The position numbers and the translations under genes are program-made. The notes below the pieces were generated by a model, which had not been told where the DNA came from, made no database searches, and worked only from the letters and a program-made list of their open reading frames with translations. A stretch of DNA of 64,000 nucleotides from Eledone cirrhosa (taxonomy: Eukaryota). The stretch covers positions 80,166,001 through 80,230,000 of the forward strand of contig OZ024745.1 of NCBI GenBank assembly GCA_964016885.1, written 5' to 3'. Positions 6,475-64,000 of the stretch are shown in pieces (the first letter of the stretch is position 1; every line of letters starts with the position of its first letter).

Positions 6475-7809
6475 CTACGACACACACACACACATATATG
6501 TATGTATACACACATTTATAACGGAATACTTCCTATGTTTTACCGCCTCTGGGACCATCTATTGTGGAAGGTTCCCACCATTGCTTTGTCAAAAGACAAC
6601 GATGATTAACGTACATACTACTTGACCTGTGACCCCAGCTTCCTGGGAGACGATATCCACATGCCCATAAATCAACTCATATATACATACTTCTAGCTAT
6701 AAGGTTATTATAAATACAACGACTTAGGTGACCGTTGACGTAAAACGAACACAGTCTTCTCACTATCCACTACACATTTATATATATATACATACACACA
6801 CGTATATATATGAGCCTTCCAGTTTTATTTCAAATTATAAACATGTCTGTGTATATTTTAATTATTTAAAAATTACTTTTAAATGAAGTGAACGTGACCC
6901 AACGGGTCACTGGTGGTCCAGTTGTAAATAAAAATTTGATCTAAAATAAAGGTTCTCAAACTTGTTGGGCCACCCCGCCCCCCATACCGCCGCGTAATAC
7001 CCTCAGCACCGCCACCCATATTTCCAGAGAGACCTGCCTACACACAAATAATATATAATAAATAAAATCGTTAATTTATATATAATAAATAATTGTTTCT
7101 ACTTTTGGCACAAGGCCAGCAATTACGGTACTTTATTTTATCGACCTCGTAAGGATGAAAGGCAAAGTTAACCTCGACGGGATTATAATAAATAATTGTT
7201 TCTACTTTAGGCACAAGGCCAGCAATTACCCAGTGCATTACTGGTACTTTATTTTATCGACCCCGTAAGGATGAAAAGCAAAGTAAACCTCGGCGGGATT
7301 TGAACTCAGACCGTAAAGGGACGTAACTTATAATATAATATATACTATCATCATCATCATTTTACGTCCGCTTTTCCCTGCTTGCAAGGGTGGGACGGGA
7401 ACTGATTCTGGCTTGATTTCTATAGCTGGATGCCCTTCCTAACACCAACCTCATTTACAGTGAGTGCTGGGTGTTTTTTCCGTGGCGCCTACACGACCAC
7501 TTTACAGTGTGGGCTGGGTGCTTTTTTGCTGTGGCATCTCCACGACCACTTTGCAGTGGAATGATAGGGACCCCAGTCCTATACTATATACTATGTATAA
7601 ATAAATATTGTATATTTTTTTATACTCCAACTATAGATTTTTAAATAATTGAAACTATATTTTTTATACTCCAACTATAGATTTCATTTGTTGCCTTCAG
7701 TTGGTTATCTATAAGGAACTCCCACTGCTCCTCTATATCGTATGTCTCTATTTGCTCTTCCTTACTGTCAAGGTGGCAAGCAACATACCTCTAAATTTGT
7801 ATTTTTGTT

Positions 7810-9764: not shown

Positions 9765-9851
9765 TGAACTGGGTAATTGCTGGCCTTGTGCCTAAAGTAG
9801 AAACAAATATTTAATTAATCTCATATTTTTGCATTTTCTAGGATATAAGCA

Positions 9852-10929
9852 ATGGCCACTCTTACTGAAAGAAAATTTTTTAAAAATCTTAGCACACCTG
9901 CTGGGGATTTACGTTATGAAATTGAAAGATTATTGACGTTTTTTGAAAATATTCATCCAAAGTTAACATCTGTACAACTCTCTGGAAATGGTTATTATTA
10001 CGATACGACAGCAAAAAAAATAATGTGCTATTTCTGTAAAACTGTAGTTAAGTTTTCAGATTCCAGTTTCAAACATGATCATTCGTGTAGATATAAAGTT
10101 GAGAGTTTTCCAGTATATGTATATGATAAAGCAGATGATGAACACGGGGCAGACTTTGCTCAGAGCACTGAGATGCAAGATGAGTGTGTTATCCCAACTA
10201 AAACAGATGATGAAAATGCTGCAGCTTTTAATGCTCAGAGCACTGAGATCCAAACTGATTCTGTAATGCCAACTAATACTGAAAAAGTTAATTCAAATAA
10301 GAATGAAATGCTTGATATGCAAAAAAGACTGGATACCTATAACAATTGGAACAAAAATGTGCCAGTAACACCCACAGATCTTGCCAAGAATGGATTTTAT
10401 TACTTAGGTTATGGAGATACTGTTAAATGTGCATACTGCTCTGTCCAATTGCACAACTGGAAAGAAAATGATGATGTCCATAAAGAACATACACGTTTTA
10501 GTCCGAAATGTCCAAATTTAGAATCTTTTATGAAAATGGATTTGAAATACGAACTGAATCGGATAAAAAGTTTTGTCAAATGGACGACATCTTACCCATT
10601 AAAAGCTAAAGATTTGGCAGCTAATGGTTTCTACCACAAGGGGCCTGCAGATAATGTCTGTTGTATTTTTTGCAAATGTGAAATCAATAATTGGAAAGCA
10701 GGTGATAACATTAAAGAAAAACATAGGTCAGTTTCTCCGAACTGCCCTTTCTTGTGTGAGAAATTGGTAGGTAATGTACTAATACAAGCTCGGAGTAACA
10801 TTCTATTTGACCGCCCTACACATCCAAATCTTGCTTTGTTAAGTGAACGCCTTAAAACATTTTCTTTGTGGCCAAAGGATAAAAAGCAAAAACCAGAAGT
10901 TTTAGCAGAAGCTGGTTTTTTCCATAATG
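9852..10929 (+). CDS. IAP coding exon 1: degenerate BIR1, duplicated linker, BIR2, BIR3, first half of BIR4
   Basis: Acceptor ttttctAG at 9840-9841; ATG at 9852; BIR motifs RLDTY..W..LAKNGFYY..GDTVKCAYC..W..H..CP and RIKSF..W..LAANGFY..CIFC..H..CPF; phase-1 donor GT at 10930. Confidence 0.95.
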
Positions 10930-12020
10930 GTAGGTGAACACAATTTTTATGTTTTTGTCGTTGATTAATTTTTTTTATAATATTAATTCCAATTTGCTAA
11001 ATTGTATAACATGGTTTTGAATATTTTGTATATTGTTGGTAAATATGGAGCAGTCTTTTGAACTCTTGTGCTGATGTCAGCACTGCATGCTGACCTCTGG
11101 GCAACACATATGTTAATTTTCTTATGTTTCAAATTTTGGCATTGCCCAGTCAGGAGAAGGAAGTCATTTAGAGTTTATCAAAAATAACACTTTTTCCAAA
11201 CCATTCTGCTCTCGTCTCACAAACGAGACACATTACATAATTTTTGCTCCATCAAGCAGAGGGATGTAGCACTTGTAAAAATAACACCAGCCTCTTGACA
11301 TGGTTGGCACTTCTATTAAGATTAGTTCCATGCATCTTGCAAATCAACCACATAAACATAACACACAATTCACTCGATTCTTTGTTATTTTCTTGTGTTG
11401 TCAAAATAGTTTCAACTTCAGTTATTTCTTTTTAAAAAATTATTATAGTAGTGATGTTTGTTATTGTTCATCAGATATTTCTAATGGCTGCTTCACTTTC
11501 AACCTCCAACTTTCAACTACTGACTATGACAAGTACAGCCACACATCTCGATCACTGAGACACACACACTCAATTCATTTGCCATAAGTCACAAACATTC
11601 CCACAGCGCTTATATGGGAAAGAGCAATTCATAGAATCACTCATCAAGCCAACATTACTTTACATCTGCCACACAAAAGTTAACAACAAACTAATACAAC
11701 AATGCCAACCAAAACACCTCACGCTACATCTATAAAACTTTCATTTACTACAAATATACATTGACATAATAACTAAGAAAGATTTGAGGGGATCAAATTA
11801 TTAACCCTACCCTGATGTCTATGTGCAAAATAACACATTCAACATCAAACGTATAAAGTGCCTGTTGGAGATCTTCTGATAAGTTGACTAATACCATGTC
11901 ATCTACAAATTTCAACTGACTGATCCTACACCTGCCCGTCGTGGTACCACTTCCAACCCATCTGCGCATGTCAATCCAATTCATGAAAATTATGAACAGG
12001 AGAAGTGACAGTATGCACCC

Positions 12021-15240: not shown

Positions 15241-18200
15241 TCCGGACTGCCCGGCGCTATAAAAGACAGATTCTATGAGACACTGATGCCCACTACCTCC
15301 CAAATAACCGACAGTGACTATATAATTATTGCTGGCGACCTAAATGGCCACATTGGACAACATTGTGACGGCTATGACGGAATCCACGGAGGCTATGGGT
15401 TTGGTACTAGAAACGAGGAAGGCTCCAGAATCCTGGAATTCTGTGATGCAAATAACCTAACTATCTGTAACACTAACTTCAAAAAACGAGACAATCACTT
15501 GATCACCTACAGATCAGGGGAACATACCAGCCAGGTAGATTATATCCTTACCAGAAGACGTGACAGAGTGTCTGTTGTAAACACTAAATCCCTCCCCCAT
15601 GAAGAATGCACCTCCCAACATAGACTGATAATTAGCGACCTCATAGTCAGGACGAGACGTACTAGACAGAAGAAGAGGACTATCCTCAGGAGAAAAATAT
15701 GGAAGCTAAAGGACCCTACAGCCAGAAATAAATTTAAAAGCATATTACTTGATGCTTTCGACAGTAAGGAAGAGCAATTAGAGTCGTACAATATAGAAGA
15801 ACAGTGGGAATTCCTGAAAGCAAACCTGCTGATGGCGGCAGACGAAGTCTGTGGCTGGAGCAGGCCTGTAGGCAGGAGGAGAGTAACATGGTGGTGGAAC
15901 AGTAAGGTGGAGGAGTCAATTAAGGCCAAAAAGCAGGCTTGGAAAGTATGGCAGGATGGGGGAAGTAGAGAAGACTATCAAATTGCCAGGAGGGAAGCTA
16001 GGAAACAAGTGTACTTCGCAAGAAGGGAAGCAGAGGAAAGAAAGTTCAAGCATGTTCTACAATGCGAGGACCAAAAACGTGAGGTGTTCAGGATTGCTAG
16101 GCAATGTGTCAAGGAAAACCGTGATATTGTCGGGGAGAAGTGTGTACTTAATGATGATGGCATACTTGCCATCACTGACGTTGATAAGAAGGTAGCTTGG
16201 AAGTGCCACTATGAAAGGCTACTAAATGAGGAGAATAGATGGGCGAAAGACAGCCTCCCCCACATCGACCCAATAGAGGGACCAGCAGTGTTAGTCGAGG
16301 GTAGTATAATAAGTAAGGCAATCAAAGATATGAAGACGGGTAAGGCGGCTGGGCCTTCGGAAATAGTTGCTTAGATGCTGAAAGCCTCTGGAACGGTAGG
16401 ACACACCATGGTCACACGGATAGTAAACCAAGTCATACAGAATGGGGTTGTTCCGAAGGACTGGCGTAGCAGCATCATCATTAACTGCGACAAGGGTAAA
16501 GGAGACGCCCTAGATAGGAGTAACTATAGAGGCATTAAATTAATCGACCAGGTCATGAAGGTCACGGAAAAAGTAATAGTGCAACTAATCAGAGAGAGAA
16601 TTGATCTAGATGAAATGCAGTTCGGGTTTGTATCAGGCAAAAGTACCACAGACGCTCTTTTCATTGTACGACAACTACAGGAGAAGTACCTAGCTAAAAG
16701 TAAACCCCTATACTTAGCTTTTGTCAACTTGGAGAAAGCCTTCGACAGAGTTCCCCGTTCCATTATCTGGTGGGCTCTTAGAAAACTAGGTGTTGATGAA
16801 TGGCTTGTGAGAGCTATACAAGCCATGTATAAAGAAACTGTCAGCAAGGTTAGAATTAACAACGAATATAGTGAAGAGTTTAGCGTAAAAGTTGGTGTTC
16901 ATCAGGGCTCTGTTCTTAGCCCCTACTATTTATTATTGCCCTTCAGGCTATAACAGTGGAGTTCAAGACTGGCTGCCCATGGGAACTCCTATACGCAGAT
17001 GATCTAACGCTCATAGCTGAATCAATGGCCAAGCTAGAGAAGAAATTCCAAACATGGAAGCACGGCCTAGAATCAAAAGGCCTTAAAATTAACCTGGCTA
17101 AGACTAAAGTTCTAGTTTGTAGGAAAGAAAATAAGGCGCCGGTCCCTTCCGGGAAATGGCCATGCTCAGTGTGTAGGAAAGGCGTAGGTAGAAACTCCAT
17201 TTCATGTCCCAAATGCAAAATATGGGTGCATAAAAGATGTAGTGGGATCACAGGTAAGCTAACTAAGAACACAGATTTTACATGTGGCCGGTGCTCTGGT
17301 GCAATAAGTAGCAGCAAGTGCCCACAAAATACTAGCTCTTTCAATTGCGCAGAGGGTTCTATAGAAATAGTGGACAGCTTCCGTTACCTGGGTGACAAAA
17401 TCAGCAGTGGGGGAGGGTGCTCTGAAAGTACAGTAGCTAGAGTCAGAAATGGATGGAAAAAGTTCAGAGAGCTTATACCACTATTAGCCGCTAAAGGATT
17501 CTCCCTAGAAATGAAAGGTAGGCTGTATGATGCCTGCATACGAACAGCAATGTTGCATGGCAGTGAGACCTGGGCATTGTGTGCAGAGGATATACGCAGA
17601 CTAGAGAGAAACGAAGCTTGCATGCTCCGCTGGATGTGTAATAGTAATATACGCGAACGGCAAAGCATAAACGAACTAAAGGAAAAATTGGAAATAAGAG
17701 GGATCAGATGTTGTTTACTCGAGAGAAGGCTACGTTGGTATGGTCACGTGATGCGCATAAAAGACAACAGCTGTATAAAAAAAGTGCAGGGCAATAAAGA
17801 TAGACGGTAGGCAGACCCAGAAAAACCTGGGACGACCTGATAAATTCTGACCTCACACACTTACACCTCTCCAAGACAATGTCACTGGACCGAGATCTTT
17901 GGTGGTACTCAGTAATAGAGAAGACCCGCCTTACCTAAATACAAAGTAAAACCTACTACAGTCAGTAGGCATCTCTAACAAAATACACCCCCATCCCACC
18001 ACCCCAGTCCCATCCACACCACCCCTTTCAATGTAAAGTTATGTTGGTGCCACAACATCCAGGCCGAAACAAATGAGATCGTGTAGGTGTCACGACAAAA
18101 AAACACACAGTCCACACTGTAATGTGGCCGTGTAGGCAACACGGTAAAAACCTCCCAGCCCCACACTGTAAATGTGGTTGGTGTTAGGAAGAGCATCCAG

Positions 18201-20363: not shown

Positions 20364-22196
20364 GTAAGAAAATACACAAATCTATGTCTGTAAACGTCTT
20401 ATTGGATTTTTTTTTTTCTCAATAAACCACATTCCATATTTAATATACACATTCATATACATATACATATATATATTTAATTAAATGGATACGAAAAAAT
20501 AGAAAAGAAAAAAAGAAATCAAGCAAAGAAAGAAAGGGAGAGGGAGTGACAGACTACAAACCCCTGTCTGAGTAGTATTTTTCAGCTGTGCCCTGCAAAC
20601 AAAATGGTGAAGGCATTTCCACAGAGAATGGACTGTGACACCTGCTGCAAGAGCCACTGTACCTCATGGGGCTCCTTCTTCAGGTCGGCTGCAGTCTTTC
20701 TAATTTTATGGAAGAAGATGGCAGTTTGGGGGCTGAGGTTACCAGTGCAAATAGGAAGCAGTCTGTCAAGCCCCATTATTTGTTTATCTTCCCTATTATT
20801 TTCATATTATTGCAATGTTTAAGAAAATGTTAGTACTCTTCTTAACAATTAACTACAGAATTCTTTTAATATCAAAATGAAGAGTTTGATGTGTATGTAA
20901 GCAATATGAATTTAGATTAAAGATTTTTTTAAATACCATTGGATGGTATTTACAGGAACAGATGAGTCTTTTGTTCTTCTGATAGGTCATAAAGTAATAT
21001 AATTAAGACTGCTAATGATAGCTGGGATTTGACAGTGTAGGATTGAAGGACAGAATAAAGACACTTTCTACAGATTAGAAATTGTAGTAATCAATAAATG
21101 GCCTACGAAAAAAATTAATAAGAACTTCTCTAAAATTCTCTTATAAGTTAATCAGAGAAGGATGGGAAGTATCTCCAATATGTATGCAATTGATGTCATC
21201 ATCATCTCTTAATGTCTATTTTCAATGCTTGCATAGGTTAGATGGGTTGTCACATCATGAGGCTAGACAGGTCAGGTGACCAAGTCTTGCTCATGTTTCT
21301 GGCTTGGTTTCTACAGCTAGATGTCCTTCCTAACGCCAAACACGTTACAGAGTGGACTAGGTGCTTTTTCATCATGTCACCAGCATGACCACCTTACAGG
21401 GTGGACTGGGTGCTTTTTCATTGTGATACCAACCAATATGACCACCTCACTGTGTAGAGTTGAGTACTTTTTCATCATGTCACCAGTATGACTACCTTGC
21501 AGGGTGGACTGGATGTTTGATGCCTGATGGGAAATGTGCACAGGGAATGAAATTCAAGAGGATAAGAGTACTGGGAAGGAAAGATTGCACAAAATATTTA
21601 ATGTAGAATCTAGAAAGTGCTGAAAGGAAAAAAATATGTCTCCAGTAGATTTAGTTCTACAGAAGTCATGTACGTGGAGGAGGAGGAAACTATTTTCTGC
21701 TGTTAAAAAAACATGAACCTCCATTTGCCATCCCTTAAAAATGCTTTATACATCCTTGAGACAACTTGTGATACACCAACCAATCTATGCCATAAAATGT
21801 TGACAACTCGTGATAGCTCATTCAATCCATGCCATAAAATTATCATCATCATTATTTTCTGCTTGCATGGGTTGGATAGGTCTTTTCCAACACAGCATCC
21901 CTCCATTTTTCATGGTTGGGCAACTATTTCCTACTGCCAACACATTTATAGAAAGCATAAACATCACAGCTTCAACTTATGATTTTCCATTTCTGCCTTG
22001 AGCAAGCAACAAAACACTTTTCCAGGGCACCACCCTTGGGAGACTGTTAAAGTTACAGAAACAGATAAAAACTACACAAAGAAACAGCTAAAAACTACAC
22101 AAAGAAACAGATAAAAACTACACGAAATGGTCAAATGCCATTTTTTTTTTTAAATATGATTTTCTAATAAAGTTTTAATTCTGTTTTAAATTTTAG

Positions 22197-23789: not shown

Positions 23790-26700
23790 TTATTGTGTAC
23801 AGTACTCAGGTGCACTACAACTCATCAAAGGTGCATGTATAGTACATAGAATAATGTACAATTGTCAGGGAAGTGAATAGTGTATGAGTCATGATATACA
23901 TGTGCGCGTGTGTATGGAGGGGGAGTATTAGATGTAGTGTTGGCGAATCTCAGGAAGCATGGAGGTTTTAAAGGATGCAGTGTCTCGACAGCTAACAACT
24001 GATGCAGGGAGTTTGTTCCATGCTTCAGCAACTCTGAGCGTGAAAAAATGTTTCCGAAAGTCACAGAAGCTGTGCTGTTTTCTGACTTTGTTGGCATGCC
24101 CATGTGTGTTAGACACATAGAAATCAAAAAGGTACTCAGGGTTGTTGTTGCCAGACGTCGGAGCTTCAATGTATCCATGCCCAGGGAAGCAAGGCGTTCA
24201 GAGTATGGTAGATGACTGATGGAGGGTATTCGCTTGGTTGCACATCTCTGAACAGCTTCCAAGCGGTCGATGTTCTGAGCAAGATAGGGGTTCCAGACTG
24301 GTGATGCAAATTCTAAGTGTGGCCGCACCATAGCTATATACAGCTTTAAATAGATAGCTGGAGAGCGGCTGACGAAGGTCTTGCTGAGTGATGCTAAGAC
24401 ACCCTCGGCCTTCTTGACAATTTTAGAGACGGGGTTCGTCCAACGCAAATCGCTGCTGACTAATGCCCAGGTCATGTTCACAAGAAGACTTCTTGATATT
24501 AGTGTTGTGGAGGGAGTATGTGGACCCTGGGTTTTACTCCCAAAATGCATGGTGATACACTTGTCCACAGCCAGCTTGAGTTGCCTGTCCATGATCCATT
24601 GTTGCATCGTGCAGTCACCCTTTTTGAATAGAGGAATGACACTGGCAGTTTTTCACTGTTCTGGAGTAGCACCGTTGTTCAGACAGAATTGGAAGAAGCA
24701 TGATGGCTGGTGCAGAAGGAAGTACCCACCACGTTTGAGAGGCAGGTACGTAATACCATCAAGACCAAGAGAGGCATGGTTGCATTTTTTTTTAAGGTGA
24801 CGTCGCAGCATTGCAGGTGTAAATTCCATAGTTGTAATAGAATCTGATGTCAGAGATGGAGAGACGGTACATTCTGGTCTTCAATAATGAAAATGCCTGC
24901 ATAGCATTCGGCAATGAGTTCTGCGCATTTCTTGGGGTCGTCAGTAACCTGGCTTGTGTGGGGATTGTGAAGAGGACCAACTGGAGAGTGAGGCCTCTGC
25001 TTTGAGTGAACATACTTCCAGAACACCTTACTGTCAGGGCTGGCTGCTATGAGGTGCTCAAATTCAAGCACTGCCTTTTTTGTCACCTGCTTGAGATGGT
25101 TGGATGATTTATTTCGCTTTTTCCTATTGATATCTGATTTACGCAGTTTATACTCACATGCAGTACAACCCGACAACCACCTGATCACCTATAGATCAGG
25201 GGAGCACTCTAGTCAGTTAGATTTTATCCTCATCAGAGGACGTGACAGATGGACGGTCGTAAACACAAAAGCCTTCCCTAGTGAGGAATGTACATCCCAA
25301 CATAGCTTAGTTGTCAGCGACCTCACGGTCAGAACTAGACGAGCCCTGAAACAGAGGCCAACCTGGAGAAGAAAGATCTGGAAGCTGAAAGTCCCCTCAA
25401 CCAGTAACAGATTTAAAGATATTTTACTCAACCCCTACGACAGTAAAGAAGAACAGATAGAGACATTTAACGTAGAAGAGAACTGGGAGTTCCTAAAAAA
25501 TAACTTACTAGAGGCGACGGATGAGGTTTGTGGCTGGAGTAAGACCTCAAGCAGGAGGAGAGTGACTTGGTGGTGGAACAATAAGGTAGATGAAGCAGTC
25601 AAGGCCAAGAGACAGGCATGGAAAGAATGGAAGAACGGGGGGAGCAGGGTACATTACATAGAGACCAAGAGGGAAGCTAGGCGACAAGTATACTTAGCTA
25701 GGAGGGAAGCAGAGGATAGAAAATTCAAGCATGTTTTACAACGTGAGGACCAGAAACAGGAGGTATTCAAGATTGCGAGGCAGTGTGTCAGAGATAGTTG
25801 TGATGTCATTGGAGAGAAGTGTATCCGGAATGATAAAGGTGAGCTTGCCCTCACAAGTGCTGAGAAGAAAGATGCATGGAAGAGTCATTATGATAGATTA
25901 CTAAATGAGGAGAATGCATGGGAAGAAGAGACCCTACCCCACGTAGACCCTATAGAGGGACCAGCAGTACAAGTCAGCGGCAGCGTAGTAAGTAAGGCAA
26001 TCAGAGATATGAAGATAGGGAAGGCAACCGGTCCATCGGGTATAGCTGCCGAGATGCTGAAGGCATCTGGGTCTGTAGGTCACACTATAACCACACGTAT
26101 CGTTAACCAGGTAATACTAGAGGGGGCCATACCAAAAGATTGGTGCAGTAGCATCATTGTCAACTGCTACAAAGGTAAAGGCGATGCACTAGATAGAGGA
26201 AACTATAGAGGTATAAAGTTGATGGACCAGGTCATGAAAGTAACAGAAAGAGTTATAGCACAGCTGATTAGGGACCGGGTGAATATAGACGAGATGCAAT
26301 TTGGGTTTGTACCAGGGAAAGGCACCACTGATGCCCTCTTCCTTGTGAGGCAATTACAGGAAAAGTACCTAGCTAAAAGTAAGCCACTCTACTTGGCATT
26401 TGTCGACCTTGAGAAAGCCTTTGACAGAGTTCCACATGCAGTAATCTGGTGGGCTCTTAGAAAACTAGGAGTAGATGAATGGCTTGTGAAAGCGGTACAA
26501 GCCATGTATAGGGGAGCAGTCAGCAAAGTTAGGATTGGCAATGAGTATAGCGAGGAATTTAGCGTACAGGTTGGGGTCCACCAGGGCTCTGTTCTTAGCC
26601 CTCTCCTGTTCATTATAGTCCTGCAGGCAATAACGGAGGAGTTTAAGACCGGATGCCCATGGGAACTCCTGTATGCTGATGACCTCGCACTCATAGCTGA

Positions 26701-28830
26701 ATCTATGGTAGAACTAGAGAATAAATTCCAAACCTGGAAGCAGGGACTAGAGAGAAAGGGCCTCAAAGTCAACATGACAAAGACTAAGGTCCTTATAAGT
26801 AGACGAGAAAACAGAACCCAGATCCCCTCAGGGAAATGGCCTTGCTCAGTATGTAGGAAAGGTGTAGGTAGGAACTCCATTCTCTGCCCCAAATGCAAAC
26901 AATGGGTACACAAGAGATGTAGCGGGATCTCAGGAAGCTTAATTAAGAATGTAGGATTCACATGCAGCAGCTGTGCTGAAACAGCAAGCAAACAGCCACA
27001 GGAAACAAGTACCACCAATCTCTGGGAGGGCCCTGTAGAAACAGTAGACAGCTTCTGCTACCTAGGTGACCGAATTAGCAACGGAGGTGGGTGCTCAGAA
27101 AGTACAATAACTAGGGTAAGAACGGGATGGAAGAAGTTTAGGGAACTACTACCACTGCTAGCTGCAAAAGGCTTCTCCCTCAGAATGAAAGGCAGACTGT
27201 ATGATGCGTGTATCCGAACAGCGATGTTGCATGGTAGTGAGACCTGGGCGCTGAAGGTGGAAGACTTACGTAGATTAGAGAGAAACGAAGCCTGCATGCT
27301 CCGATGGATGTGTAACAGTAATATACGTGAACGACAAAGCATAAAGGAATTGAGAGAGAGACTGAGCATAAGAGGAATCAAATGCTGCGTGCAGGAGAGG
27401 CGGTTACGCTGGTATGGACATGTGATGCGTATGAAGGATGACAGCTGCATAAAAAGGTGCAGAGCACTAGAAGTTGATGGAAACCGCGGAGTGGGGAGAC
27501 CCAAGATGACTTGGGATGAGGTGATAAAAGCCGACCTTACCCAACTACACCTCTCAAAGTCAATGACACACGACCGTGACTTCTGGCGTCACGCAGTAAT
27601 ACAGGGTACCCGACCTCCCATGGGTACATGCTGAAGCATATAAACAATATGCCCCCCACCGCAAGGTGGTCGTGGAGGTGCCACGGCAAAAAAGCACCCA
27701 GCCCACACTGTAAAGTGGACGTGTAGGCGCCACGAAAAAGCACCCAGCACTCACTGTAAATGAGGTTGGTGTTAGGAAGGGCATCCAGCTGTAGAAATCA
27801 AGCCAGATCAGTTCCTGTATGAGCAAGGCATGGTCAGCCGACCAGACACTGCCCACAACAGGACAACCCGTCTAACCCATGCTAGCGTGGAAGAACGGAC
27901 GTAAAACGGTGATGATGATGATGATGATGCAGCATTACAACGTTATTTTCTGGCAAGACGGATGGCTGCAGTCTCCCAAATTGCACTTTTGGGATGTTTT
28001 TTCTGCTTACGTGGTACCGATGCTGCACATGCTGTCCATATTGAGTTCAGGATGTTCTGGAGTACAGTGTTGACATCTCCAGAGTCATAAAACTCAAGCC
28101 AGTTTGGATGTTGCAGTTTGATGCAGCAACAGTTCCAGTCTGCTTTATTCCAGTCAAAGTGAGCAGTTTGGAGATGGTTGTGGTTTTTGTTACTGCCCAT
28201 GAGGGATAGATTGCCAATGATCATAGCATGATCAGAGTCACCTAAAGGTTCCTCAGTAGTAATAACCGTTTCATGAGTAGTGGTGAAGAGCAGATCCAAA
28301 GTGTTGTCACCTCTTGTTGGGGAGGTGACTACTTGGGACCAGTTCGAGTCCAGCACTAGCTCAAGGAAATCATTTGCACTTTGCCGCCAATGAAAAGTTT
28401 CCCAGTCAATCTTAGGGTGATTGAAGTCCCCTGCAATAAAAACATAAGTGGCTGTTTTCCTGGCAGCAGCTCTGAGGATATCACAAAGTTAAGTGTCCTG
28501 TTAGTAATTTGGGGGACAGTAAATGACTCCAAGTAGCAGTGTTGACATGGTCATACGTATATCGCAGAAAAATACCTCTTGCTGGTTCAAATCAACACAA
28601 GAAATTGCTGAAAAATTTGACCGAACGTAGACCATTACACCACCACATGCAGTCTTTACGAAACAAGTTGTAGCCAGTTATGCTGAAAACCCCATCACAG
28701 AGTAAGGAATGTGTCCATGTTTCTGTGACTGTAATGAATTCAGGGTCGATACTTTTGATGTAGGAGTCAAGAAGATGTATCTTATTGCATAGACTACGTG
28801 CATTCAAGGACAACAATTTGTACCTTGATT
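23790..28830 (-). mobile_element. CR1-clade LINE, degenerate, split by the RTE insertion at 25164-27926
   Basis: Endonuclease LNARSL..VTETW and PTRGDNTLDL..SDH; C-terminal VRPHLEFASPVWNP and FFTLRVAEAWNKLP. Confidence 0.85.
25164..27926 (+). mobile_element. RTE family B, 5'-truncated, open RT frame, ATGCAG TSD
   Basis: Frame open to the stop at 27634; ATGCAG at 25158-25163 and 27927-27932; (GAT)n tail. Confidence 0.95.
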
Positions 28831-41732: not shown

Positions 41733-42402
41733 TCATCATCATCATCATCATCATCAACGTTTAACGTCCGTGTTCCACGCTTGCATGGGTTTGGACGGGG
41801 GTAGTCCCACTTGAGGCAAGAGTGATTGTCTTGCTCGCATAGGACTGTCTGGCAGGTTTTCTACAGTTGGATGCCCTTCCTAACACCAACCACATTTACA
41901 GTGTGGGTCTGGGAGGTTTTTACCGTGTTGCCTACACGGCCACATTTACAGCGTGGACTGTGTGTTTTTTGTCGTGACACCTACACGATCTCGTTTGTTT
42001 CGGCCTGGATGGCGCGGCACCAACATAACTTTACATGGAACGGGGTGGTGTGGATGGGGTGGGGGTGGTGGCGGGACGGGGTGTAGTTTGTTAGAGATGC
42101 CTACTGGCAAGGCGGGTCTTCTCTGTTACTGAGTACCGCCAAAGGTCACGGTCCAGTGACATTGTCTTGGAGAGGTGTAAGTGTGTGAGGTCGGAGTTTA
42201 TCAGCTCATCCCATGTTTTTCTAGGTCTGCCTATTCCGTGGCTACCGTCTATCTTTATTGCCCTGCACTTTGTAATACAGCTATCGACTTTCATGCGCAT
42301 CACGTGTCCATACCAACGCAGCCTTCTCTCGAGTAAACAACATCTGATCCCTCTTATCTCTAATTTTTTCCTTAGTTCGTTTATGCTTTGCCGTTCACGT
42401 AT
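41733..42402 (-). mobile_element. RTE family A 3' fragment
   Basis: ORF 42091-42420 matches the RT C-terminus; (CAT)n tail. Confidence 0.9.
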
Positions 42403-44864
42403 ATAAATATTATTTAACAAAAGGTCGAGAGGACATTTCAGTCATGTCAAGGACATGACAACCTCCCTAGAATTTGGTGATCTACACAACAAACGCACCC
42501 AGTACACTCTGTAAAGTGGTTGGTGATAAGAAGGGCATCCAGCTGTAGAAAGCTTGCCAGACAAAGGGTCACGAGGATCTTCAGCTGTGTCAAGAACATG
42601 ACAGCCTCCCAAGTGTTTGGTGATCTATAGGATAAATGCACACTGTAAAGTGGTTGGTGATAGGAAGGGTATCCAGTGATAGAAATCTTGCCAAACAAAA
42701 GGGTCAAGAGGACACTCAGTTGTGTCAAAGACATAACAACCTCTCCTGTGCATATGCTGGTGTGTCAACCGTACATAAAGTAAGACACAATCCCTGGCCG
42801 ACCTGGAAGATCAAAGGCTCTGCTTCAGTACTGAGTTGGCCTATGTAGACCTGGCCAACCCTTGCTAGCAGGGAAAGCAGATGTTAAAATGATGATGATG
42901 ATGATGATGAATGACTATTTATTACATTATAACTATTATTTATTACAATATAAATGTTATTTATTACAATTCTAGCAGTTTTCGCTCCAGTTTGTACTGT
43001 GCTCAAATCTCCCTCTTCCATACACCCCTCATGTCCTAACACCCCACACTTCACCCACGTACCTTCACCCCTACACTTCCCCAGATAAGTGCCCCACCCT
43101 AGATCTACCTCACCAATCCTCCCACACCCCAGCCCCCAGTCCACACTGTAAAGAGGTCGTTTTGGTGCCACGACAAAAAACGCCCAGTCCAAACTGTAAA
43201 GTGGTTGTGTAGGTGTCAACAAAAAGCACCCAATCCACACTGTAAAGTGGTTGTGTAGGTGACACGACAAAAAACACCCAGTCCACACTATAAATGTGTT
43301 TAACATTAGAAAGGACATCCAGGCATAGAAGCTAAGCCAGAAACAGTTCTGTATGAGCAAGTCATGGTCATCTGATCTAGTTTGTCTCACAGTGAAACAA
43401 GTGGTCTACCTCATGTTAGTGTGGAAAAATAGACGTTAAATAGTGATGATAACGATGATGATGATACTTTATAGTCGCCCACCTCTATTCTGTTTTCAAA
43501 AAAAAACAGGCAACAACAACAAAAAAAACTAGGAAAACAAATTCCTTTGCAGCCGTCACCAGGAGCTTTTCTATAAATTTAAATGGCTGAGGGGTGCTTA
43601 TCTGTAACTCCAAGGGTACCCCTCCATCCCTGCCTCTATTTTCAGAAAAAGGAGTCATTGGCAAGTGAGTTGGATGTCAGAAATAAACAAAACAAAACTA
43701 AAAAAGAAAAAAAAAATTTCCTCAGAAAAATCTCTGAGGTTGGAAAAAGTCAAAGGTCCTCCACCTTGCGCCTCTCATTCCATTTTCAGAGAAAAAGTCA
43801 AAGGTCCTCCACCTTGCGCCTCTCATTCCATTTTCAGAGAAAAAGTCAATGGCGAGCATGTCGGTAGTCAGATTAGTTGAAAACATGAAAAACCTTAATT
43901 ATTACCAATTTTATTTAGTGTTGAGAAAGTGATGAGAGACATCAAGAGGGATAGATAGAGAGACAAAGGGAGATAGATAGAGACATTAAATGAGATAGAG
44001 AGAAATTATATGAATGCATAAACCAGCAAGAGTGCCTGTCTCAGAGTCACTGTGCTAGAAACAGCAGCAAAATTTCTCCACCTTACCCGTCATTCCGTTT
44101 TCAGAGAAAAAGTTGATGACGATCATGTCAGATTAGTTGAAAACACACAGAAAAACCTTAATTATTACTAATTTTATTTAGTGTTATTAGTGGACAACAT
44201 ACAAACAAACTTCCTTTTTATAATTATTATAGATAAATATTATTTATTACAATATAACTACTAAGATTTGCAATATAACTATTATTTATTACAACAAGCC
44301 CATACATTTATTTAACGCTCTTTTTGACAACTTAATACAAATAACGGAACAACAAAGTATACATTTCCTAGCAATGAATATTTTATTCCAATAGGGAGGA
44401 TGAACAAACTTGTACTCTATCAATCCCGAAAGGATAAAAGGTAAAGCAAACCTCAATAGGTTTTGAACTTAGAAAATAAAGGGCTGTAACTATATGCTAC
44501 AAAGCATGTTGTCCAACACACAAATAACAGAACAAAGTATAATTTTACCAATCAGTTGGCCATGGCAAAACAGACAGGCAATGTGTATTTTATTATGATA
44601 GAAATGGTGTACAAATAATTGTTTCTACTTTAGGCACAAGGCCAGCAATTACCCAGTGCATTACTAGTACTTTATTTTATCGACCCCGTAAGGATGAAAG
44701 GCAAAGTCAACCTGGTGTACAAATAATAATTAGTAAATAGTCTTATGAACTAATACAGCACACATATATATAATTTACATATATATATGTGTAGCAGTAA
44801 TATTCAATTATGGGTCTCAAAAGAGTTGTACTAGATGCATGTATGTTGAATATCAAACCATACC

Positions 44865-61422: not shown

Positions 61423-61622
61423 NNNNNNNNNNNNNNNNNNNNNNNNNNNNNNNNNNNNNNNNNNNNNNNNNNNNNNNNNNNNNNNNNNNNNNNNNNNNNN
61501 NNNNNNNNNNNNNNNNNNNNNNNNNNNNNNNNNNNNNNNNNNNNNNNNNNNNNNNNNNNNNNNNNNNNNNNNNNNNNNNNNNNNNNNNNNNNNNNNNNNN
61601 NNNNNNNNNNNNNNNNNNNNNN
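61423..61622. other. Assembly gap (200 N)
   Basis: Run of N. Confidence 1.
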
Positions 61623-64000
61623 ATGACATGTTTCGCTTTTGTTGAAGCTTATCAAGGCCAACTACCCCGCCCGTCTGCTGAGATTAATGATGTTATATTC
61701 TTATAGAAATCTAGTAAATAATCAGGAGCTGATTATGCAGAGCGGTTGTTGGTCAGGCAGAAATTAAAAATTAGAATTGTAGCTCTGAAATAGCAATATA
61801 TATATGGATGTAAATATAATGTATTTTGCAATACACTTTATGCTTAATTAAAAGCATTTTGAAGACCGTAAGCTATTGTTTTAAAGTAGTGACAAATTCA
61901 CTCACTTCGATCTCAGCAAACAGGAGGAGATAAGCCGACATGACATGTTTCGCTTTTGTTGAAGCTTATCAAGGCCAACTACCCCGCCCGTCTGCTGAGA
62001 TTAATGATGTTATATTCTTATAGAAATCTAGTAAATAATCAGGAGCTGATTATGCAGAGCGGTTGTTGGTCAGGCAGAAATTAAAAATTAGAATTGTAGC
62101 TCTGAAATAGCAATATATATATGGATGTAAATATAATGTATTTTGCAATACACTTTATGCTTAATTAAAAGCATTTTGAAGACCGTAAGCTATTGTTTTA
62201 AAGTAGTGACAAATTCACTCACTTCGATCTCAGCAAACAGGAGGAGATAAGCCGACATGACATGTTTCGCTTTTGTTGAAGCTTATCAAGGCCAACTACC
62301 CCGCCCGTCTGCTGAGATTAATGATGTTATATTCTTATAGAAATCTAGTAAATAATCAGGAGCTGATTATGCAGAGCGGTTGTTGGTCAGGCAGAAATTA
62401 AAAATTAGAATTGTAGCTCTGAAATAGCAATATATATATGGATGTAAATATAATGTATTTTGCAATACACTTTATGCTTAATTAAAAGCATTTTGAAGAC
62501 CGTAAGCTATTGTTTTAAAGTAGTGACAAATTCACTCACTTCGATCTCAGCAAACAGGAGGAGATAAGCCGACATGACATGTTTCGCTTTTGTTGAAGCT
62601 TATCAAGGCCAACTACCCCGCCCGTCTGCTGAGATTAATGATGTTATATTCTTATAGAAATCTAGTAAATAATCAGGAGCTGATTATGCAGAGCGGTTGT
62701 TGGTCAGGCAGAAATTAAAATTAGAATTGTAGCTCTGAAATAGCAATATATATATGGATGTAAATATAATGTATTTTGCAATACACTTTATGCTTAATTA
62801 AAAGCATTTTGAAGACCGTAAGCTAAAACAATAGCTTACGGTCTTCAAAATGCTTTTAATTAAGCATAAAGTGTATTGCAAAATACATTATATTTACATC
62901 CATATATATATTGCTATTTCAGAGCTACAATTCTAATTTTTAATTTCTGCCTGACCAACAACCGCTCTGCATAATCAGCTCCTGATTATTTACTAGATTT
63001 CTATAAGAATATAACATCATTAATCTCAGCAGACGGGCGGGGTAGTTGGCCTTGATAAGCTTCAACAAAAGCGAAACATGTCATGTCGGCTTATCTCCTC
63101 CTGTTTGCTGAGATCGAAGTGAGTGAATTTGTCACTACTTTAAAACAATAGCTTACGGTCTTCAAAATGCTTTTAATTAAGCATAAAGTGTATTGCAAAA
63201 TACATTATATTTACATCCATATATATATTGCTATTTCAGAGCTACAATTCTAATTTTTAATTTCTGCCTGACCAACAACCGCTCTGCATAATCAGCTCCT
63301 GATTATTTACTAGATTTCTATAAGAATATAACATCATTAATCTCAGCAGACGGGCGGGGTAGTTGGCCTTGATAAGCTTCAACAAAAGCGAAACATGTCA
63401 TGTCGGCTTATCTCCTCCTGTTTGCTGAGATCGAAGTGAGTGAATTTGTCACTACTTTAAAACAATAGCTTACGGTCTTCAAAATGCTTTTAATTAAGCA
63501 TAAAGTGTATTGCAAAATACATTATATTTACATCCATATATATATTGCTATTTCAGAGCTACAATTCTAATTTTTAATTTCTGCCTGACCAACAACCGCT
63601 CTGCATAATCAGCTCCTGATTATTTACTAGATTTCTATAAGAATATAACATCATTAATCTCAGCAGACGGGCGGGGTAGTTGGCCTTGATAAGCTTCAAC
63701 AAAAGCGAAACATGTCATGTCGGCTTATCTCCTCCTGTTTGCTGAGATCGAAGTGAGTGAATTTGTCACTACTTTAAAACAATAGCTTACGGTCTTCAAA
63801 ATGCTTTTAATTAAGCATAAAGTGTATTGCAAAATACATTATATTTACATCCATATATATATTGCTATTTCAGAGCTACAATTCTAATTTTTAATTTCTG
63901 CCTGACCAACAACCGCTCTGCATAATCAGCTCCTGATTATTTACTAGATTTCTATAAGAATATAACATCATTAATCTCAGCAGACGGGCGGGGTAGTTGG
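61623..64000. repeat. 317-bp tandem array, near-identical units, orientation inverted at about 62825
   Basis: Unit starts at 61623, 61940, 62257 and 62574; reverse-complement units follow 62824. Confidence 0.97.
63023..63114 (+). ncRNA. Type I hammerhead ribozyme, U3-A8 core variant; also 63340-63431 and 63657-63748 (+), and 61910-62001, 62227-62318, 62544-62635 (-)
   Basis: GGCC/GGCT stem I; TTGATAA core 63052-63058; GCTT-caacaa-AAGC stem II; GAAA; ACAT-gtc-ATGT stem III; GTC triplet ending at 63087; long G-U-rich stem I extension. Confidence 0.82.

Follow-up and report, generated by a model that had tools for sequence, protein, structure and literature searches.

Non-LTR retrozymes of animals consist of tandemly repeated, non-coding units of 150–450 bp with one type I hammerhead ribozyme each, and have been described as having a low GC content, thousands of copies, a self-paired monomer and co-occurring Penelope-like elements (PMC7229834; bioRxiv 10.64898/2026.07.22.740005), all of which are shared by the family analysed here. 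Their monomers are reported to circularise in coral, mussel and axolotl (PMC7229834). Hammerheads with U3-A8 have been published as natural variants with the same core covariation as the one described below, found only by a relaxed descriptor (PMC3088659; PMC4209133); ∼1,300 minimal motifs of this type were counted in Schistosoma mansoni (PMC4209133). Penelope-like insertions are described as having a partial tandem and an inverted 5'-truncated arm, a tail of ∼30 nt and a (TA)n or AT-rich target (PMC8557442; PMC11167929).

The window analysed here, a 64,000-nt stretch of the Eledone cirrhosa genome (∼3 Gb), ends in a non-coding array of two back-to-back arms that carries a hammerhead once per 317-bp unit. 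The units are 99.7–100% identical to each other, the array has a GC content of 0.34 and contains no stop-free frame of ≥130 aa, and the monomer is self-paired (z −3.77, reached by 0/100 shuffles). Thus, the array has the features by which non-LTR retrozymes are recognized: tandem units of 150–450 bp with a type I hammerhead, no coding capacity, GC below 50% and a self-paired monomer. Its parts are as follows.

61623–62825 (− strand), left arm, with 3.8 units of 317 bp; an N gap (61423–61622) conceals the outer end
62567–62610 (−), left-arm hammerhead copy; more copies end at 62293, 61976 and 61659, the last one cut by the gap
62824–62825, inversion point between the arms
62824–64000 (+), right arm, which runs ∼1.15 kb beyond the window and ends in (TA)n, 167 nt past a cleavage site
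63023–63114 (+), whole type I hammerhead domain with an interrupted stem I of ∼25 bp (Rfam match, fold, covariation)
63042–63045 (+), stem I internal loop, 5' side, GUAG (GUAC in Schistosoma)
63052–63058 (+), core strand U3-U4-G5-A6-U7-A8-A9; UUGAUAA in 235/252 copies of an anchored parse, C3-G8 in a sister clade
63059–63072 (+), stem II (4 bp) with loop 2, CAACAA (63063–63068); double changes at two stem pairs
63073–63087 (+), G12-A13-A14, near-palindromic stem III (63076–63086) and U16.1-C17; predicted cleavage after 63087
63094–63097 (+), stem I internal loop, 3' side; U63094 is U1.7, the predicted partner of A63068
63228–63254 (+), two 3' end points that recur in the family, 141 and 167 nt downstream of C17 in each unit
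63365–63408 (+), right-arm hammerhead copy 2
63682–63725 (+), right-arm hammerhead copy 3

The reading that we consider probable builds on the observed fold, covariation, joint change of positions 3 and 8, copy number and two-armed insertion pattern. It holds that each 317-bp unit is a non-LTR retrozyme monomer with a type I U3-A8 hammerhead, which would process itself, would be copied by a borrowed Penelope-like enzyme and would rely on a Schistosoma-type contact between its loops.

Elsewhere in the window there is a 362-aa stop-free frame with BIR repeats (9849–10937, +), which resembles an exon of an inhibitor of apoptosis, an 874-aa stop-free frame labelled by eye as the endonuclease and reverse transcriptase of a non-LTR element (25010–27634, +), a broken copy related to the latter and likewise labelled by eye (15241–17810, +), and dispersed short arrays of a related ∼49-bp unit (1574–1805, 7454–7558, 21341–21510, 41890–41987 and 43135–43294).

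The hammerhead, its family and the U3-A8 core

Read on the + strand, 63048–63091 contains, in this order, the 5' strand of stem I, UUGAUAA, stem II, GAAA, stem III, UC and the 3' strand of stem I, which places U3 at 63052, A8 at 63057 and C17 at 63087. The numbering of the hammerhead core is well established, and following it we take the cleavage site to lie after C17 (63087). UUGAUAA stands in place of the canonical CUGAUGA, as a sequence-only reading of this DNA had claimed, and U3-A8 retains the Watson–Crick 3-8 pair of a type I core. Stems I, II and III come in type I order with support from covariation; stem III has 4 bp and a 3-nt loop. The best Rfam model was Hammerhead_HH9 (RF02275) with 31.1 bits (E 5e-06), below its gathering score of 52; no match in the scan of the 64-kb window reached gathering level, and the top score among 46 HH9 matches across the genome was 35.8 bits. 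Positions 63020–63117 fold with −43.9 kcal/mol on the + strand (z −6.27, 0/200 shuffles as stable) and more weakly, with −31.2 kcal/mol (z −3.78), on the − strand. On these sequence grounds we regard 63023–63114 as a real type I hammerhead with a U3-A8 pair and a predicted cleavage activity.

The sequence-only reading had also pointed to several G-U pairs in distal stem I. There are four in stem I as a whole (63032-63105, 63035-63102, 63041-63096 and 63048-63091), two of them distal, in a register that is backed by relatives. The bulge register proposed in that reading was replaced by one that pairs 63041 with 63096, because this pair remains A-U or G-U (53 and 59 loci). Just 3' of stem I, at 63119–63124 (+), lies a GTRAGT motif, mostly GTAAGT or GTGAGT, that is found in every subfamily seen and in the C3-G8 clade and which we take to be splice-donor-like.

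An exact 19-nt pattern found at least 2,894 U3-A8 copies of the family in the genome. Freeing positions 3 and 8 of that pattern added 19 further matches, all with a single change; C3-G8 within the same 19-nt flanks had no match in the genome, nor had the reversed controls. From 108 loci (50 around the first 100 matches listed, plus 58 others) 252 ribozyme copies were parsed, representing 107 of the 108; counts of core and loop conservation in this set are inflated, because the parser was anchored on those letters. When 181 whole units from 91 loci were placed in a tree, they formed a ladder of subfamilies, of which the one in the window is the least diverged, and near-identical copies with an intact core are present on five scaffolds. 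Contigs from eight sequencing runs, compared with the unit, showed the same subfamily variants and no change listed at 63052 or 63057, which does not amount to independent support because five of the runs are of low depth or partial and all perhaps come from one organism. In one subfamily, seen in nine copies at six loci (L131, L137, L138, L147, L153 and L166), C11.1 and G12 of the core are separated by an additional A.

U3-A8 is not rare in this genome. Mirror patterns for this architecture matched 3,042 U3-A8 and 9,601 C3-G8 motifs genome-wide, and a separate minimal hammerhead, which sits in the terminal repeats of an element with reverse transcriptase (RT) and GIY-YIG domains, gave 6,805 matches to a pattern allowing both 3-8 states, the first 100 listed being all U3-A8. 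There are thus ∼10,000 U3-A8 motifs in several families, one of them Penelope-like, and counts based on CUGANGA can miss a large share of hammerheads (∼10,000 U3-A8 vs. 9,601 C3-G8 with the present patterns). The description of U3-A8 as an uncommon natural variant therefore holds for the published record, where it is natural and generally uncommon, but not for this genome, where it is abundant. Other hammerheads were seen as well. A tandem family of 466–470 bp has C3-G8 hammerheads with a palindromic CUAG stem III in two-armed arrays (L098–L127; L034:7700–8700), and more U3-A8 hammerheads have either a palindromic CAAUUG stem III or a short motif beside (TA)n (L230, L233, L237; L032:1992); neither the 466–470-bp family nor L230, L233 and L237 had a BLAST match to the window unit.

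A distant relative of the family with a canonical core was found near a Penelope-like element, and a search with it led to 29 distinct loci. In this sister clade, whose copies are the best matches to a C3-G8 query, CUGAUGA is present in 33 of the 35 copies (27 parsed directly and six from the alignment); the remaining two are U3-G8 and C3-U8, and U3-A8 is found in none of the 35. The longest matches are 73–75% identical to the window unit over its whole length. Among the 62 units of a further tree (from 74 loci supplied), a single branch with a support of 100/100 and a length of 0.18 sets 21 C3-G8 and two single-change copies apart from every one of the 37 U3-A8 copies, and no lineage with an intermediate 3-8 pair was seen. 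Since the two states are divided by one well-supported branch, positions 3 and 8 switched together, in a single event of an unrooted tree, which agrees with the earlier proposal that both partners had changed jointly. C3-G8 is probably the older state because it is generally prevalent. The account of pairwise mutagenesis in another hammerhead names only the G3-C8 swap as rescued (PMC9901934), so that the activity of U3-A8 would depend on context. In the sister clade (L248–L277, e.g. L249:1501–1611, +), moreover, two U residues are opposed at the base of stem II, loop 2 is 5 nt long and the cleavage site is in most cases GUU instead of GUC.

Predicted folding and a possible gating of cleavage

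In the processing scheme that we favour, the ribozymes of a multimeric transcript would cleave it after each C17 and so release 317-nt monomers, which may circularise. Since the completed monomer is predicted to fold into an inactive rod, cleavage is probably slow, or else conditional on ongoing transcription or on the double hammerhead. For the window copy, the hammerhead fold lies 5–7 kcal/mol above the predicted minimum (5.3 kcal/mol relative to the rod), and its stem III and proximal stem I are predicted with near-zero probability; among 113 sequences, only four have the active monomer as their predicted minimum. As a dimer, the double hammerhead is the predicted minimum in 43 of the 54 sequences with a 12/13-nt stem III palindrome; with the 11-nt stem III found in the window, it is the dimer minimum in 4/59 and the active monomer is favoured in 0/59. 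Dimerisation into a double hammerhead is thus predicted for the older subfamilies, and weakly for the youngest one, to which the window belongs. For retrozyme dimers of Xenopus, eight of nine are reported as uncleaved in vitro (bioRxiv 10.64898/2026.07.22.740005).

The rod of the older subfamilies contains a 6–7-bp helix of the core and stem I with the 5' half of stem III. Position 3 faces stem III position 15.4 in this helix, as C-G in the sister clade, as U-G in old and as U-A in middle subfamilies, and does not pair with it in the subfamily of the window, while the predicted duplex energy of the stem III palindrome goes from about −20 to about −10 kcal/mol. These predictions would fit a dimer-gated switch, which we consider possible but somewhat doubtful. 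The palindromic 5' half of stem III would lock the monomer by invading core positions 3–5 and proximal stem I, and two units would pair their palindromes and so free a double hammerhead. Because position 3 takes part in both the catalytic pair and the lock, the change from C3-G8 to U3-A8 would have been tuned together with the lock, and the youngest subfamily would have an eroded lock and palindrome. If so, the natural series of variants would record a shift in the gating of cleavage. Against this, swapping the core pair in the model had no consistent effect over the 113 sequences, formation of a double hammerhead requires the exchange of a long stem I, and the lock could arise incidentally from a 4-nt motif that is repeated. 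The idea that U3-A8 itself stabilises the inactive fold is not supported: the computed gap was larger with U3-A8 in 61 and smaller in 45 of the 113 sequences, and the unrelated C3-G8 family adopts a similar rod.

The weakened palindrome duplex (about −10 kcal/mol) and the drop of double-hammerhead minima between the 12/13-nt and 11-nt forms, with no active monomer among the 59 latter sequences, would also be expected if the ribozyme were functional in the older subfamilies and weak or dispensable in that of the window. The family would then spread through a Penelope-like enzyme that recognises its 3' region, and U3-A8 would be inherited baggage; for a Penelope-like element of a lizard, transposition in vitro is reported without a need for hammerhead cleavage (PMC11167929). 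We find this unlikely. The stem III change by which the window clade is recognised, A-U to U-A, is compensatory. Near-identical copies from five scaffolds retain an intact core, and forming the double hammerhead still gains 1.9 kcal/mol over two monomers, in nearest-neighbour energies that leave out tertiary contacts and co-transcriptional folding.

Selection on the stems and the proposed contact between loops

Covariation was analysed in 30 sequences chosen to span the U3-A8 subfamilies. Of the 840 cells, 98.5% pair, and double changes are found at seven of 28 pairs, which are spread over all three stems, with both the distal and the proximal part of stem I represented. There are 59 double-change cells compared with 21.4 in shuffled data (0/500 shuffles as high), a count inflated by relatedness; the number of double-change pairs was matched by 144/500 shuffles. 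The common G-U states occur at 64, 61, 59, 44, 26, 16 and seven of the 107 loci, whereas A-C states reach a maximum of six loci each. With the threshold set first, at four loci, G-U and A-C states did not differ (9:6 common, 18:13 rare); with a threshold of seven loci, chosen after seeing the data, they did (7:0 vs. 20:19, Fisher p 0.03). The excess of G-U over A-C thus gives moderate support for selection on the ribozyme strand. Together with the compensatory changes in the stems, and subject to the post hoc threshold and to A-to-I editing as a rival cause, it bears out the earlier suggestion that selection has acted on the structure of the + strand RNA. Such selection may act on the few master RNAs from which a subfamily springs, and would let only those changes spread that keep the pairing of the ribozyme strand, G-U included.

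A-to-I editing could produce the same strand-specific G-U pairs if edits of the long stem I duplex were reverse-transcribed into DNA and fixed. Six of the seven common G-U states are indeed in A/G columns and one in a C/U column, and common columns in the stems number nine A/G vs. four C/T. Outside the ribozyme, however, there is no such skew (10 A/G vs. 14 C/T columns), and no genome-wide A-to-G skew was seen outside the stems. A change from A-U to G-U costs less stability than one from G-C to G-U, so that selection alone predicts the same A/G bias, in columns that are unpolarised. Both causes fit these counts; of the two we hold editing to be improbable as the source of these pairs, and selection on the RNA structure is retained.

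The sequence-only reading had further noted that CAAC in loop 2 (63063–63066) is complementary to GTTG at the stem I internal loop (63045–63048) and had offered the match as a possible tertiary contact. The complementarity is there, and all four pairs, G-U counted, are possible in 180 of the 252 copies (63/107 loci); pseudoknot-type contacts are reported in ∼40% of natural hammerheads (PMC3088659). A 4-bp Watson–Crick kiss between CAAC and GUUG that stabilises the active fold is nevertheless very unlikely. A 4-nt match is expected by chance in 27% of 20,000 shuffles of both strands, and the last G of GTTG (63048) is already paired in stem I, where it varies between G and A while its partner U63091 is retained. 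The proposed pairs show no double change and are 81.7% paired (48/500 shuffles equally high), the outer ones are broken in 14/30 and 7/30 sequences, and both the most common older subfamily and the C3-G8 clade have only two of the four. The ribozyme was accordingly not placed in the pseudoknot-stabilised class, which has a conserved or covarying Watson–Crick loop contact.

Likely instead is the known non-canonical contact between U1.7 and the final A of loop 2. In the loops of Schistosoma (UCCA:GUAC and CAAAUA), the first U of the internal loop forms a reverse Hoogsteen pair with the last A of loop 2 (PMC2632901; PMC11875169). Here the loops are UCUC:GUAG and CAACAA, and both nucleotides are present as U63094 and A63068. 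In the anchored parse, the last A of loop 2 is found in 251/252 copies and the internal-loop U in 248/251; positions 4 and 5 of loop 2 vary, position 4 being C, A or U. In 46 loci an extra U moves the internal-loop U one place outward (1.8). The extrahelical pyrimidine at internal-loop position 8 of the Dufour motif is replaced by G63045 in the window; this position is C in 6/107 loci and also in the older and sister clades.

Insertion pattern and comparison with described systems

Copies of the family have fixed end points, 141, 167 or ∼172 nt after the cut, and TA-rich sequence adjoins 116 of 151 ends. Both orientations are present at 50 of the 107 loci, with a short and a long end paired in 40 of the 43 loci where both ends could be mapped. 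The inverted 5'-truncated arm, the tail at one end and the (TA)n target of Penelope-like insertions are all found in the family. That the back-to-back array is an assembly artefact next to the gap, with the hairpins being mere palindromes of DNA, is hardly credible, even with a gap of 200 N adjoining the left arm and an identity of 99.7–100% between the units, since copies on both strands recur at 50/107 independent loci with differing inversion points and alike pairs of end types, and the compensatory and G-U changes require an explanation on the RNA strand.

It is likely that the family borrows a Penelope-like enzyme to be copied into (TA)n sites. Among 50 GIY-YIG loci, drawn from 150 matches listed, there was no autonomous partner with shared sequence, and three family matches beside such loci are separate insertions (two of them inspected). 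The element mentioned above, which has the separate minimal hammerhead in its terminal repeats, is Penelope-like (L208:2750–8800, −; also L209, L213, L217 and L219). It has a 938-aa stop-free frame with RT and GIY-YIG domains and ends in (TA)n; its terminal repeats are ∼1.07 kb long, and the loop of their U3-A8 hammerhead is a palindromic CCGG. This U3-A8 element was rejected as the source of the retrozyme, its similarity being limited to AT-rich flanks.

As U3-A8 hammerheads and retrozymes are both already known, the family is not a new kind of system; its new aspects are a sister clade with C3-G8, a rejected Watson–Crick contact and the predicted gating by dimerisation. A literature search on cephalopod retrozymes gave no specific report among the 15 papers listed. 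Compared with the non-LTR retrozymes of animals described so far (PMC7229834; bioRxiv 10.64898/2026.07.22.740005), the family has a U3-A8 core, a 4-bp stem III with an 11–13-nt palindrome and two-armed (TA)n insertions with unequal ends, and it is described here from DNA alone, whereas RNA circles are reported there. Penelope-like elements with comparable insertions (PMC8557442; PMC11167929) differ in that the retrozyme has no ORF, and an autonomous element sharing its terminal sequence was absent from the 50 GIY-YIG loci.

The ribozyme resembles HH9 and the Schistosoma mansoni hammerhead (RF02275; PMC2632901) in its 6-bp proximal stem I, 4-bp stem II, C-A-A-N-N-A hexaloop and an internal loop with G-U-A on the 5' and U1.7 on the 3' side, but has G instead of a pyrimidine at internal-loop position 8 and a U-U pair in proximal stem I, and scores 31 bits against the cut-off of 52. 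With the double hammerheads of newt and axolotl, as reported (PMC7229834; PMC4209133), it shares a palindromic stem III, a monomer predicted to be poor and a better dimer. It differs in that the block is predicted to come from a competing helix as well as from a weak stem III, and in that its 4-bp stem III makes a monomer fold possible. Finally, in comparison with the natural U3-A8 hammerheads published to date (PMC3088659; PMC4209133), this is a full type I ribozyme with tertiary loops, part of a retrozyme and accompanied by a homologous C3-G8 clade in the same genome. Homologous C3-G8 and U3-A8 clades with a stepwise ladder of subfamilies thus form a natural experiment within one genome, in which the surroundings that let a U-A core pair work and the gating of cleavage by dimerisation become testable.
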